This document shows positions 12,933-19,928 of a stretch of 64,000 bases of DNA, piece after piece (positions within the stretch are counted from its first letter, which is position 1; each line of letters opens with the position of its first letter). Location: the IMG/VR virus record IMGVR_UViG_3300042402_003952, one strand, 5' to 3'. The stretch is from a virus (lineage: Duplodnaviria; Caudoviricetes). The translations under genes were made by a program, and so were the position numbers. Below the pieces are notes generated by a model. The model was not told the origin of the DNA. It did no database searches and saw only the letters and a list, made by a program, of their open reading frames with translations.

Positions 12933-13763
12933 ATGCTTTCTGAGGGTAGAAAAAGAGACACAGCAGCAAATGCAGTTTTAGCACTTTCATTTGCTGCAAA
13001 TGCAGCACAATCTCCTCAATCATTAGTAAGATCTGGACACGATGCTGCTCCAAGTCTCCCTTTAATGGGAGAACTGATGAGAAAGAGAAAGGAAGCAAAT
13101 AGAAATTTGGATAGTGCTAGAGTATCTGAACCAGCACGTAATCGTAAGAAAAAGACTTTTAAAGAGTTTGTAGAAGAATCAGCAATAATAAGAGAAGGAA
13201 GACATTTCTCATCTAAAGATGAGTTAATGAAGTATCACGGAGGAAAACTACCAGATGGAACCTTCATTAAAAATAGAGGAACTAAAGAAGCACCCAAGTA
13301 TGGTATTGCTTCAGTTCAATCTAGAGAAAATGAGAAGGAAAGAAGAGAAAAAAGAATTAAACAAGCAACAGGACAACTAACACCAAGAGAAAAGGCAAAA
13401 GTTGAACGTAAACGTAGATTAGCAAGAGAACGTGGAGCAGAACTTCATCACGCAACTGAAATAGAAACTTCTGGCAAAGAAATGAAGGATATGTCTCCTG
13501 GTGATGTGTTGAGACATAAGAAAAAGCAAGCACAAGAGAAGAAGTATCACGGTAATGACCCCAAAAACCTAGTTGTTGCAAATAAAGGTCCAGTTTCAAA
13601 ATTCAAACCACAACAACCAGGATTTCATCATGGTAAGTTCCATGCATTTGAAAGAGGTAATCGTGAAAAACTAGGTGATATTGGTAATGCCATCACTCCT
13701 ATGAGAGCTTTCACTACTCTTGTGAATAAAGCAAGAAGAAAAACTAGAAGAGGAGAAGATTGA
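12933..13763 (+). CDS. late basic protein with internal capsid-targeting-like motif and HNH-like C-terminus
   Basis: ATAAATA at 12903; internal KTFKEFVEES; LHH...GNDPKNL...HGKFH. Confidence 0.6.
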   Translation: MLSEGRKRDTAANAVLALSFAANAAQSPQSLVRSGHDAAPSLPLMGELMRKRKEANRNLDSARVSEPARNRKKKTFKEFVEESAIIREGRHFSSKDELMKYHGGKLPDGTFIKNRGTKEAPKYGIASVQSRENEKERREKRIKQATGQLTPREKAKVERKRRLARERGAELHHATEIETSGKEMKDMSPGDVLRHKKKQAQEKKYHGNDPKNLVVANKGPVSKFKPQQPGFHHGKFHAFERGNREKLGDIGNAITPMRAFTTLVNKARRKTRRGED

Positions 13764-13788
13764 TAAATAAAAGAAAAGTTATAAAAAG

Positions 13789-14247
13789 ATGAAAACTTTT
13801 AGAGAGTTCCTAGAAGAAGCATACCTCGTTGAGATGCGTAAAGAGGATAAACTTAAAGGAGAAACGAAAACTCCTCTCCACGTAACCACAACTTCAGGTA
13901 GAGTTGTGAAAAAACCTGGAGGCGGACTAGAAGTTAAGAAATCAACAAGAAAATCATTAACACCTAGAGCAGCAACTGGTAGAATGAAGCAGGGGATGAT
14001 TGATAGAGAAACACAACCATATGCTACTCGTATGCCTGGTGCTGCTAGACACGCACAAGGTGGTGGAGGTTCTGGAGCAGCAGCACCTGGTAGATTGAGA
14101 GGTGTTGGAAAACTAGAAAAGCAAAAAATGGAGAAAACTCCAGAAGGAGAAAGAGTAAGACCATTTAGTGCTGGTCCATCACCAGCACAAAAGGTTGCAT
14201 TGAGAAGAGCAAAAATAGCACGTTCAACTGGTGGCGGACAAAGATGA
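13789..14247 (+). CDS. putative internal head protein (capsid-targeting sequence)
   Basis: ATAAATA at 13763; N-terminus MKTFREFLEEA; highly basic. Confidence 0.7.
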   Translation: MKTFREFLEEAYLVEMRKEDKLKGETKTPLHVTTTSGRVVKKPGGGLEVKKSTRKSLTPRAATGRMKQGMIDRETQPYATRMPGAARHAQGGGGSGAAAPGRLRGVGKLEKQKMEKTPEGERVRPFSAGPSPAQKVALRRAKIARSTGGGQR

Positions 14248-15209
14248 AATCTTTTCAACAGTTTCTAGAAGAAGCATATTTCATACTAGAAAAGAAAAGA
14301 CAGTATGATGACTCGCACGGATTTGATAGGTCAAAGCATCCTGACCTAGAAGTTAAGTATGACCGACCAAGAGGAAAAGACCAAAATACTAACAGAAGCG
14401 GTTCTACAACTATTCACCATAAACCTTCCGGGGTTACTTATACTATTGGTCATTCTAAAAGGCATAGTTCCGATGATGAATACGAACATATGTATGATGC
14501 TAAATTAGGTGGAAAAGCAAGAACCGCACACGGACACAAACCCGAACATAATGTTAGGTGGGAACATAGTAAGTCTAATGACCAAGATAAGATGAGTCCA
14601 GGTGAAAAGTTAAGAACTGCAAGGAACGCAAAGAGGGTTTGGGATAAGCACGTCCAACATAGAATTCCTAGTGGGCATCTGGTATCTAATGAACCAGAAG
14701 AGAACTCAAGTGATAATAGAAGAAACCCTGATAAAAATACAAGAGCATCAATTTATAAGAAGTCTGGGTTTGGAAAAGTAGATAGTTGGGGTAAGCAGTA
14801 TTCGACAAAAATTGGAAAGAAATTTCATCCAGTACATAACGATGAAGACCTAGAAGAAGCAAAGGCACCAAAATCTGATGCTCTAGAAACGATTCAAAGA
14901 AAAACAAAAGGAAGAACACCAGGAATGAAGTATGTTGTTCATACTACAAGTTCTGGTGATATTCGTGTAGATAACATTGAAGTTCCAGAGAATCAAAGAG
15001 GCAAAGGAATTGCAAAAAGAACATTTAAAGGACTTCATAACTATGCAGATAATATTGGTAAAAATGTTTCTTTGACCCCAGTTGCAAAACCAGGGTATAA
15101 AGAAAAATTAGATAAGATGTATAGAAATCTAGGTTATCGAGACCGCACACCTTCGGATAGAATTGCTGGTGCAGATACAATGATTCGTACCCCCAAGGAG
15201 AAAAAATGA
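14244..15209 (+). CDS. putative internal head protein with C-terminal GNAT acetyltransferase domain
   Basis: MKSFQQFLEEA; internal DLEEA; IEVPENQRGKGIA and KMYRNLGY. Confidence 0.7.
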   Translation: MKSFQQFLEEAYFILEKKRQYDDSHGFDRSKHPDLEVKYDRPRGKDQNTNRSGSTTIHHKPSGVTYTIGHSKRHSSDDEYEHMYDAKLGGKARTAHGHKPEHNVRWEHSKSNDQDKMSPGEKLRTARNAKRVWDKHVQHRIPSGHLVSNEPEENSSDNRRNPDKNTRASIYKKSGFGKVDSWGKQYSTKIGKKFHPVHNDEDLEEAKAPKSDALETIQRKTKGRTPGMKYVVHTTSSGDIRVDNIEVPENQRGKGIAKRTFKGLHNYADNIGKNVSLTPVAKPGYKEKLDKMYRNLGYRDRTPSDRIAGADTMIRTPKEKK

Positions 15210-15991
15210 AAACCTTTCAAGAGTTTATTTACGAATGTTATGAACTAGAAGAAAGTTCAGGTGGTGAAAGAAGTGGTAGAAGAACCAGAGGTAAGGTAAC
15301 ACTTGCTCGTGGTCGTGGTGCTGATATGACTCGTCAAGAAAGAACTACTGCTTCTATCGCAAAGAAAGCAGGTCTTAAAGGAACTGGTAAGTATTCCACT
15401 AAAGACTTGAGAACAAAGCATAAGGATTATACAACTTATGATAGTGAAGATGAGTTAGATGATATTGGAAGCACAGAGCAAGACCATTTCATCCGCACTC
15501 ATTCTTCTCCAAGAAAAGCAGCAAAAAGTGAGAGATTGATTTCAAAGATGAAGTCAGTAACAAGACCTATAATTGGAAGACCTGGAATAACGGGTAGAAC
15601 GACTGCACATAAAACTACACCTTCAAGTGAAAGTGTAAGAAAAGTGAAAGACTTAAAAAAGAATATGACTAAAGCAGGTGCAAATAAAAGAGGTGAAGTT
15701 CACACTGTAGATATTATGCACCGTGATAGTAACCTTGGTAAGGGTGATAGGCACCAGCAAATGGAAAGGGGTAGAAACTTTATTCAAGCAGTGAAGGATA
15801 CTCCAAAGCATTTGAAAGCAGCAGGAGCAAAAAAAGGTGATGCTGTTGTCGGAAAACCAACTGCTGTTATGCCTGGTGAAGACAAGAAAACTGGTGAAGC
15901 AAAAAGAGCAAAACTTTATAAGAAAGCATTCGGCAAAAAGAGCACTGAAAAGTCCACAAAAACTGGATTGATGGTTGGTAAATCAGACTAA
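15206..15991 (+). CDS. putative internal head protein, possible degenerate GNAT C-terminus
   Basis: MKTFQEFIYE; basic; RAKLYKKAFG. Confidence 0.6.
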   Translation: MKTFQEFIYECYELEESSGGERSGRRTRGKVTLARGRGADMTRQERTTASIAKKAGLKGTGKYSTKDLRTKHKDYTTYDSEDELDDIGSTEQDHFIRTHSSPRKAAKSERLISKMKSVTRPIIGRPGITGRTTAHKTTPSSESVRKVKDLKKNMTKAGANKRGEVHTVDIMHRDSNLGKGDRHQQMERGRNFIQAVKDTPKHLKAAGAKKGDAVVGKPTAVMPGEDKKTGEAKRAKLYKKAFGKKSTEKSTKTGLMVGKSD

Positions 15992-16049
15992 AAGACACTC
16001 CTTGAACTGTCCCCGAGACCCCGCAAGGGGTCTTTTTTTGTGCTATACT
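15992..16049 (+). promoter_or_regulatory. early promoter element copy 4 with embedded terminator
   Basis: AAGACA-N10-TGTCCC, 30 nt containing GACCCC-GCAA-GGGGTC-T7, TATACT. Confidence 0.8.
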
Positions 16050-16069
16050 ACTTGAAACACACGAATCTT

Positions 16070-16477
16070 ATGGAACTTACAGTTGTAGCAATCAAACGTG
16101 AAGATGGTTTGTATCACTTTGACCATTCTCATAATGATACAGTTGAAGAACTTCTTTTGAATGGAACTGAAGAAGCAATTGATGATCATTGCTACTTCAA
16201 GACTGGAAAGTATCCGATTGAAGGTGATGAAGTTGAGATTTCTCTCTTCCTTGAAGAACCTTCTGATTATGATACTCTTCTGGTGAAAGAAGTATCCGAT
16301 GAAGAAGGCACGACTTATACTGATACGACGATGTGTCTTCCTGTTTGGTTGTGCCCTTGGTTGCAGGGATACTTTGGTGAAGTTCCTGATGAGATTTACA
16401 TTAAAGTGCGTCCAATTAACAAAGGTCTTGAGAGTTTCGTTGCTACTACTGGTATGAGAGGTTTTTTGAATAAATAA
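16070..16477 (+). CDS. DUF6717-like protein
   Basis: C-terminal WLCPWLQGYFGEVPDEIYIKV; ATG 16070 lies downstream of the promoter. Confidence 0.6.
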   Translation: MELTVVAIKREDGLYHFDHSHNDTVEELLLNGTEEAIDDHCYFKTGKYPIEGDEVEISLFLEEPSDYDTLLVKEVSDEEGTTYTDTTMCLPVWLCPWLQGYFGEVPDEIYIKVRPINKGLESFVATTGMRGFLNK

Positions 16478-16493: not shown

Positions 16494-16652
16494 ATGAAAC
16501 CAACACCAAGAGAATTGCAGGAAACTTATAAGACCTACGAGAGTGTTGTAGAGCATTTAATTTCAGAAGGTTATGCAGAGGATAAAGAATCTGCAGATAA
16601 GATTATTGAAGGTATGAGTGAAACCTGGTACAAATTTATAGTTAAAGAATGA
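16494..16652 (+). CDS. 52-aa late protein: stand-alone L..EGY...MSE.W module
   Basis: ATAAATA at 16470; hand translated ...HLISEGYAEDKESADKIIEGMSETWYKFIVKE. Confidence 0.65.
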   Translation: MKPTPRELQETYKTYESVVEHLISEGYAEDKESADKIIEGMSETWYKFIVKE

Positions 16653-19095: not shown

Positions 19096-19127
19096 ATATA
19101 AATATTCTCATAGTGCTTAAAAAACAA

Positions 19128-19928
19128 ATGGATTCTAGAGACATTCAATCGTACCAAGAAGTTCATACTATTGATGAAGGTATCCGTTCTTCATTGAAGA
19201 GATTTCTTGGTAGAAAAAAGAAAGAAGCAGAAGCACCAAAACCAATGAGTAGAGGTGAAGTTCTACGTCAGAGATATAATGTTGGACCAGAAAAATCTGA
19301 TACTTCTGCAAAGAGACAAATTCTCAATCGTAGTCGTGCAAGAGCAGAAAGAGATGAAGAGAAATATGGTGGTTCCATATATACCAAAAAAGTTGCAGAT
19401 AAATCAAGAGAAGCACATAATCGTTATTTGAAAGCTGGTTATAGTAAGTATGGTGCTACACATACTGCAGGGAGTGCTCCCGAACAAGGTAGAGGTAATA
19501 AAGCAAGAAAAAGAGCAGCAGCACTCAATAAAGAAGAATTTGATTTCATCCTCTATCATCTTGTAAATGAGGGATATACAAATAATCTTAAAGGTGCAGA
19601 AGTCATTGCATCAAATATGAGTGAAGAATGGGTGGAGAGTATTGTTGAAGAACTTACTGGAGAAAGAAGAACAAGAGCATTAGAAAAAGGAGGATATTTA
19701 GCAAACAGGGTTGCTAGTGGAAAGGAAGGACAACCAGTAGAAAGAAGAAATCGTAGTGGTGATGTAACTATGAGAACAACTACAAAAGGACCAACTAAAA
19801 GAGGGGGTATTGGGTTTAAAGGAAAATCAAAATCAGATTGGTATGGTGGTGATGATACACACGGTTCTGGTAATAAATCAAGAAGAAGGAGAGGATTGGA
19901 AGTCAAAGATACAAGTGATGATTTATGA
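19128..19928 (+). CDS. late basic protein with L..EGY...MSE.W module (probable internal/processed virion protein)
   Basis: TATAAATA 19097-19104; MDSRDIQSYQEV..IDEG; YHLVNEGY...MSEEWVESIVEE. Confidence 0.65.
   Translation: MDSRDIQSYQEVHTIDEGIRSSLKRFLGRKKKEAEAPKPMSRGEVLRQRYNVGPEKSDTSAKRQILNRSRARAERDEEKYGGSIYTKKVADKSREAHNRYLKAGYSKYGATHTAGSAPEQGRGNKARKRAAALNKEEFDFILYHLVNEGYTNNLKGAEVIASNMSEEWVESIVEELTGERRTRALEKGGYLANRVASGKEGQPVERRNRSGDVTMRTTTKGPTKRGGIGFKGKSKSDWYGGDDTHGSGNKSRRRRGLEVKDTSDDL

Follow-up and report, generated by a model that had tools for sequence, protein, structure and literature searches.

A mini-GNAT acetyltransferase domain behind T4-type capsid-targeting sequences in a freshwater T4-like phage

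The 64,000-nucleotide stretch of viral DNA in IMG/VR virus record IMGVR_UViG_3300042402_003952 (the whole stretch is called the window below) contains three consecutive open reading frames (ORFs), ORF 13789, ORF 14244 and ORF 15206, whose N-termini match the capsid-targeting sequence of phage T4 internal proteins (IPs). Profile, predicted fold and motif identify the C-terminal domain of ORF 14244 as a true GNAT acetyltransferase with an intact RGKGIA loop. We propose that the three ORFs encode late-expressed head cargo of the T4 internal-protein and Alt type, in which the acetyltransferase would be freed from a fusion by the head protease, injected, and would acetylate a host protein at entry; on balance we consider this probable. 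The features of the region are as follows, with a slash marking a junction between modules or a site of presumed cleavage.

13763..13769, + strand: ATAAATA late-promoter-like motif, 26 nucleotides upstream of ORF 13789
13789..14247, + strand: ORF 13789, basic protein of 152 residues (isoelectric point, pI, 11) whose N-terminus is the targeting sequence MKTFREFLEEAYLVE
14244..15209, + strand: ORF 14244, fusion protein of 321 residues (tag, module A, junction, mini-GNAT)
14244..14291, + strand: capsid-targeting sequence MKSFQQFLEEAYFILE of ORF 14244, with two L/I-x-E sites (LEE at residues 8-10, ILE at residues 14-16)
14292..14858, + strand: module A (residues 17-205), a stand-alone gene of 205 residues in relatives; predicted GNAT-like fold, His cluster
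14847..14861, + strand: junction DLEE/A (residues 202-206 of ORF 14244), remnant of the tag of the GNAT gene and candidate prohead-protease site
14850..16468, + strand: swapped cassette comprising the GNAT body, ORF 15206, the terminator and ORF 16040, from blastn of three related contigs (L002, L003 and L004) against the window
14859..15206, + strand: mini-GNAT acetyltransferase domain (residues 206-321), from profile, Pfam and fold searches
14997..15014, + strand: RGKGIA, the predicted acetyl-CoA pyrophosphate-binding loop (GNAT motif A; R252-G-K-G255-I-A257)
15206..15991, + strand: ORF 15206 (module B), basic protein of 261 residues with the N-terminus MKTFQEFIYECYELEE
16015..16044, + strand: intrinsic-terminator-like hairpin (strong hairpin at 16015-16034) and T run downstream of ORF 15206, at the end of the unit

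An acetyltransferase domain behind capsid-targeting sequences

The resemblance of the C-terminal domain of ORF 14244 to GNATs is not due to chance, because 267 library proteins match it at E ≤ 0.001 in an exhaustive HMMER search. The Pfam family Acetyltransf_7 is matched by 52 of 55 aligned family members at E ≤ 0.01 (best E 7.9e-10), the motif A consensus of the 55 members is RGxGxG, and those members that are polyvalent proteins pass the Pfam gathering cut-off. A search of the PDB with the family profile returned essentially only GNAT structures, the second-best match (E 5.9e-5) being the 96-residue chain 6IUF, which is AcrVA5 (PMC11021501). The AlphaFold model of the domain (pLDDT 84.4) has the order α, β, β, α3, β5, α4, β6 and contains the GNAT core fold β4-α3-β5-α4-β6. 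When this model was compared with the PDB by Foldseek, all 50 top matches were GNATs, and AcrVA5 was covered over its full length with a TM score of 0.62-0.64 by target.

In a viral structure library the model best fits portions of very large phage proteins (TM 0.73-0.76); of these seven matches, three are annotated as N-acetyltransferase or structural protein. The domain adjoins ART-PolyVal or ADPrib_exo_Tox and other polyvalent-protein domains in three giant homologues (2,467-3,900 residues), and the match of the mini-GNAT to phrog_10691 likewise falls inside a profile of 3,925 positions. A GNAT family located beside ART domains in phage polyvalent proteins has been described by Iyer et al. 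(2017), who predicted it to be virion-delivered and protein-modifying (PMC5512222). Judging by architecture and not by accession numbers, the mini-GNAT family fits this family, since its homologues directly adjoin ART-PolyVal or ADPrib_exo_Tox in giant proteins; here, in contrast, the domain occurs solo or in a two-module protein with a T4-type tag and is not part of a giant polyprotein.

AcrVA5, an acetyltransferase that inactivates Cas12a, is likewise a GNAT of small size (~95-115 residues) in which the usual N-terminal arm is missing; its gene lies on a mobile element, and its target is a defence protein. However, the identity is only 15-17%, AcrVA5 carries no capsid tag, and nothing was found that ties the mini-GNAT to CRISPR. 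We therefore do not claim that the mini-GNAT is an AcrVA5-like anti-CRISPR protein; sequence and model point to a shared mini-GNAT fold only.

The three ORFs start with MKTFREFLEE (ORF 13789), MKSFQQFLEE (ORF 14244) and MKTFQEFIYE (ORF 15206), to be compared with MKTYQEFIAE at the N-termini of IPII and IPIII in the T4 record. In T4, the aromatic residues at positions 4 and 7 of the tag direct capsid targeting, whereas L/I at position 8 and E at position 10 are used for processing; the prohead protease gp21 cleaves after L/I-x-E, and a protein fused downstream of IPIII or of its tag is packaged and carried into the host cell (PMC9026906). These determinants are present in all three ORFs: an aromatic residue at position 4, F at 7, L or I at 8 and E at 10. 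The capsid-targeting signals proposed in an earlier note on this DNA, made from the letters alone, are thus real, as the three leaders match the T4 IPII/IPIII tag at its critical positions. The internal DLEEA site pointed out in the same note fits the T4 prohead-protease rule as well.

A leader of the form MKT[FY]..F[IL].E is carried by at least 17 of the 150 best homologues of the GNAT and hence is not a chance resemblance. It is kept at the protein level among homologues of only ~40% identity. The leader-carrying homologues include gp185 of S-CRM01, annotated as 'acetyltransferase', and gp252 of B23, both from cultured cyanophages. Like the window's domain these are mini-GNATs behind leaders (MKTFDEFLTE.. 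and MKTYSQFITE.., respectively; ~33% identity over the domain), but they are stand-alone genes of ~130 residues in which the tag is unannotated. The gene for B23 gp252 adjoins gp25 and gp6.

The three ORFs are joined by consecutive stop/start overlaps via ATGA, and their products are basic (pI 9.4-11, with 19-23% K+R in the neighbouring tagged proteins). With an ATAAATA motif upstream and a terminator-like hairpin downstream, they look like one late unit, as is needed for head cargo. All 14 copies of ATAAATA in the window lie on the + (coding) strand, where 26 would be expected by chance on both strands together. The motif is therefore found at about half of the chance expectation, at sites from 527 to 59996 that mostly precede starts by 15-30 nucleotides; the gp8 gene (58578), for example, also has a copy 23 nucleotides upstream. 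This distribution is consistent with a late promoter under selection.

Judged by its genes and by the runs in which it occurs, the window comes from a T4-like phage of the freshwater, cyanomyovirus type. Homologues of the baseplate proteins gp6 (PHROG E 8e-195) and gp8 (1e-162) are encoded on either side of an ORF of 4,164 residues, and the window also contains GIY-YIG homing endonucleases and three tRNAs. The closest matches of gp6 are in cyanomyoviruses, with identities of at most 58%. The stretch occurs in public sequencing runs, mostly of lake and freshwater metagenomes. A DNA search of isolated phages with the region as query gave no match.

Exchange of cassettes at the tag

The relatives P0019 and P0020 start with MKTYQQFIEE/AKAPKPDALETIQ, continue through the GNAT and pass via ..EEFEYELEE/SS.. 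into a homologue of module B. At the corresponding place the relatives read MKTYQQFIEE/AKAPK, compared with ..DEDLEE/AKAPK in the window. From this tag-GNAT layout it follows that DLEE/AKAPK in the window is a remnant of the tag with which the GNAT gene itself began.

Three metagenomic contigs (L002, L003 and L004) are 92-96% identical to the window up to position 14849 and again from 16469, and in them the 1.6 kb of the window between these breakpoints is replaced by ~0.2 kb. In two of the three the replacement opens with another tag, GTG-KTFQEFLFEE, and the right breakpoint coincides with ATAAATA at 16470. Hence the GNAT is absent in close relatives, in which the basic proteins are kept. Contigs of three DNA runs (2016, 2017 and 2019) bridge the fused junction of the window with 0-3 differences. 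An assembly chimera at 14849/14850 was considered and is ruled out by these bridging contigs from runs of different years and by the lack of a long repeat at the joint.

One of the bridging runs contains a further variant, where ORF 13789 leads straight into ATG AAA ACC TTT AGG CAG TT + C CTA GAA GAA GCA.., which reads MKTFRQFLEEAKAPK and corresponds to the GNAT with its own tag and without module A. Further loose contig ends coincide with the tag of ORF 13789 or lie immediately past that of ORF 15206. In close relatives and co-occurring DNA, module A thus occurs on its own, and the GNAT occurs either singly behind its own tag or fused to module B; all observed variants have their breakpoints in or at tag-coding sequence. 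Among 35 related viral contigs, the GNAT is present in six, in each case behind its own tag and immediately upstream of module B, and module A in three; the two are separate genes on opposite sides of module B.

Other fusions have an L/I-x-E linker at each module border. A diverged form of module B, termed B', is followed by the GNAT in P0031, and B' is fused to an AAA_33 (PF13671) P-loop kinase in both orders, with a tag at the joint (P0307 and P0308); kinases are therefore probably cargo of the same system. The L/I-x-E part is kept at fusion junctions even where the initiator Met is lost. In P0188 and P0179 a 73-residue leader precedes MKTFREFLEE and module B, again with an L/I-x-E linker at the border. 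The same leader, MLSEGRKRDTAANAVLALSFAANAAQSP..., is found in the window in ORF 12933 (12933-13763), where it stands ahead of the internal tag-like sequence KKKTFKEFVEE at 13149, the first codon of which is AAA and not ATG. The match of P0188 and P0179 to the leader of ORF 12933 indicates that the leader-plus-tag layout recurs.

Two further elements were noticed around the cassette. ORF 16040 (16040-16477) encodes an acidic protein of 145 residues (pI 4.4, GTG start) without a tag, and is located in the swapped cassette past the terminator. A small module, L..EGY....A..I...MSEEW, forms a gene by itself (16494-16652) and recurs inside ORF 19113 (19113-19928). In P0009-P0013 this module is fused ahead of module A (..MSEEWRYSILE/KKRQ..), and the junction ends in an ILE site.

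Modules A and B

The earlier note had suggested up to three GNAT-like domains in this region, quoting DLEEA, RGKGIA, ...KMYRNLGY in the C-terminal domain, NTRASIYKKSGFG (residues 165-177 of ORF 14244) and RAKLYKKAFG (residues 234-243 of ORF 15206). All of these motifs are present where they had been placed. The suggestion holds for the C-terminal domain of ORF 14244 by profile, fold and motif A, and in part for module A, which has the predicted fold but not the cofactor loop; for ORF 15206 it found no support at the sequence level, as no significant GNAT signal was seen there. The structural check that had been recommended, AlphaFold followed by Foldseek, likewise places the C-terminal domain among the GNATs and divides for module A, as described below.

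Most homologues of ORF 14244 have 200-207 residues and cover only its first 205 residues, with an acidic tail at the end. Many histidines are invariant in this module A family (H59, H70, H96, H98, H102, H145 and H195). Module A has no match in Pfam and no profile match in the PDB, and in a comparison with the GNAT profile by hhalign the probability was 1.2%, which is not significant. Motif A is absent, as the β4-α3 loop reads SKSNDQDKMSPGEK without R/Q-x-x-G-x-G/A. The AlphaFold model (pLDDT 75.6, pTM 0.71) shows a GNAT-like order of strands and helices. With this model Foldseek found nothing at E ≤ 0.001, whereas in an exhaustive alignment by VIA-align GNATs made up 48 of the 50 best chains over residues 29-195, with Z 6.4-8.1, where values below 8 lie in the caution zone of the tool. 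Between 98 and 131 residues were aligned (mostly 100-123), with a root-mean-square deviation mostly of 2.8-3.9. In the ESM Atlas, GNAT clusters account for six of the seven named rows for module A; a feature search there with modules A and B gave nothing usable. On the basis of a predicted model and middling Z-scores, module A would be a protein of GNAT fold with a different or lost chemistry.

Module B is widespread and conserved, with more than 340 close homologues and the diverged B' branch. It matches no family in Pfam or the PDB, and no GNAT in Pfam even at E ≤ 10. The sequence searches thus do not support module B as a GNAT: nothing significant was obtained from Pfam at E ≤ 10, from two profile searches of the PDB, from hhalign with a broadened B/B' alignment or from an unfiltered hmmsearch. 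The hhalign alignment with the GNAT profile is collinear and far from significant (probability 0.5-1.1%), and the 83-column alignment with β4-β6 of module A, also collinear, is not significant either (2.2%). Module B has a GKG after a β-strand that might be taken for a cofactor loop, but the B' proteins do not conserve it.

The resemblance of module A, module B and the GNAT in the motif YKKxGFG is not significant (hhalign probability 0.5-2%). In a profile comparison of modules A and B the 17-residue tag is the sole common part; with the tags trimmed, a short TxASIxKKxG...YSTK match appears that is not significant. A common motif strikes the eye in TRASIYKKSGFGK..GKQYSTK of module A (residues 165-189 of ORF 14244) and TTASIAKKAGLKGTGKYSTK of module B (residues 45-66 of ORF 15206), although profile comparison lends it no significance; in B' proteins the corresponding stretch reads ERAAFKKAG. 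In many homologues of module B (P0207, P0209, P0212 and P0218), a cysteine-containing mini-module, CWPGYKKKGTQKLFGKTYNRCVK, is inserted directly after the tag.

Proposed role of the unit and its alternatives

How would such a unit work? The sequences of the tags, the identity of the GNAT, the origin of the junction and the polymorphism of the cassette were observed directly, and it is from sequence and the T4 precedent that we infer packaging, cleavage, ejection, catalysis and target. The T4-type tag on each product would dock the cargo to the scaffolding core of the prohead, and a gp21-type prohead protease would cut after L/I-x-E and take off the tag. Because T4 loads proteins fused behind IPIII or its tag, a fusion such as ORF 14244 should still be packaged; a second cut at DLEE/A would then yield module A (~22 kDa) and the mini-GNAT of 116 residues. 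The freed proteins would remain with the packaged DNA and enter the cell along with it. Drawing on the acetyl-CoA of the host, the mini-GNAT would then acetylate a host protein as soon as infection begins, most likely a component of defence, transcription or translation. The analogy to T4 Alt drawn in the earlier note appears reasonable, because the C-terminal GNAT is real and lies behind a fitting protease site, and because the leaders are real.

Several observations weigh against this proposal. The mini-GNAT of the window scores below the Pfam cut-offs (17.7 versus 23.6 bits, and 18.5 versus 30), and it does not have the N of the NKG motif, which is kept in at least 90% of the family, so that its activity may be altered. 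A gp21 gene was not found within the window; a complete 247-kb relative with a homologue of module B does encode a gp21-family protease (PF03420, E 1e-36, 122.9 bits). L/I-x-E sites are not significantly depleted within the mature proteins (1 seen against 2.7 expected, P = 0.23), and their avoidance is not used as an argument here. RNA support consists of a single contig of a relative in an RNA library, for which DNA carry-over is possible. The RNA-library runs cover only part of the stretch (shares 0.23-0.34) and are not counted as proof of transcription.

In view of the low Pfam scores and the missing near-invariant residue of the window's GNAT, together with the lack of a cofactor loop in module A, the GNAT-fold modules could be non-catalytic, serving in binding or structure as abundant DNA-associated head fillers or decoys, with the activity of the C-terminal domain lost. 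We regard this as unlikely, since the domain has an intact RGKGIA loop and β4-α3-β5-α4 core, both of which are conserved among the 55 diverse family members. Could the packaged enzyme instead act on the phage's own material and not on host targets? Acetylation of lysines in the basic co-packaged internal proteins or the scaffold, before or during head filling, might tune their grip on DNA. That the neighbouring tagged proteins are all K/R-rich and that the GNAT recurs adjoining or fused with modules B and B' would suit such a role. However, the same GNAT family also accompanies ADP-ribosyltransferases in polyvalent proteins and occurs in many unrelated settings where module B is absent, and close relatives that lack the GNAT still keep the basic proteins, which makes this explanation improbable to us.

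A different objection concerns the leader itself, which might be a shared recombination and translation-start module only, the proteins being unpackaged and the GNAT an ordinary late cytoplasmic enzyme. As all variant breakpoints lie in or at leader-coding sequence, this sequence is clearly a recombination site. Yet the leader keeps exactly the residues that are needed in T4 for targeting and processing (PMC9026906), it is conserved as protein across homologues of ~40% identity, and its L/I-x-E part persists at fusion junctions after the Met has been lost; we accordingly doubt that recombination and translation start are its only functions. Finally, structures of TacT, GmvT and AtaT are among the fold matches of the mini-GNAT and module A alike, and the GNAT could be a toxin-like aminoacyl-tRNA acetylator of this type, injected to stop host translation. 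These toxins do not stand above protein N-terminal, lysine and polyamine acetyltransferases among the matches, the mini-GNAT is without the N-terminal half present in them, and a block of translation at entry would hit the phage's own early genes too. We consider such a toxin very improbable.

Returning to injected cargo that acts on the host, a broader version can be put forward tentatively, as a possibility. The locus may be an arsenal of injected effectors that is still diversifying: the mini-GNAT, the His-rich module A and perhaps module B would have descended from the GNAT fold and acquired different chemistries. The tag would be both the loading and cutting peptide and a point of DNA recombination, and the mini-GNAT would inhibit a host defence system at entry, by acetylation. 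In such an arsenal, swapping, stacking or fusing cassettes would be harmless, because the head protease would separate the products again.

Compared with IPI, IPII, IPIII and Alt of T4, the unit has a near-identical N-terminal tag (MKT[FY]QEF[IL].E), L/I-x-E sites, basic products and predicted late expression, and its locus is likewise hypervariable, with genes that have the tag alone in common. It differs in that the candidate cargo is an acetyltransferase fold, and in that the cargo genes also form head-to-tail fusions in which the tag is kept as a linker. The proposed unit would thus resemble T4 Alt in the way it is delivered and AcrVA5 in the reaction it catalyses. In a literature search we found no paper in which an acetyltransferase is connected with a capsid-targeting sequence, and for cyanophages such a sequence receives no more than a passing mention.

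Injected phage proteins of known activity are few, and they include some of the fastest counter-defence tools, such as T4 IPI and Alt. If our proposal is true, an acetyltransferase joins this set. The tagged acetyltransferase can be recognised from sequence by its tag, occurs in the cultured cyanophages S-CRM01 and B23, and has a relative among the domains of giant polyvalent proteins. Which host proteins would be modified in the first seconds of infection thereby becomes a directly testable question in aquatic phage-host systems. Moreover, the natural variants show how a cargo locus evolves, by exchange of cassettes at the tag-coding sequence, where fusions would be tolerated because the tag doubles as a protease site.

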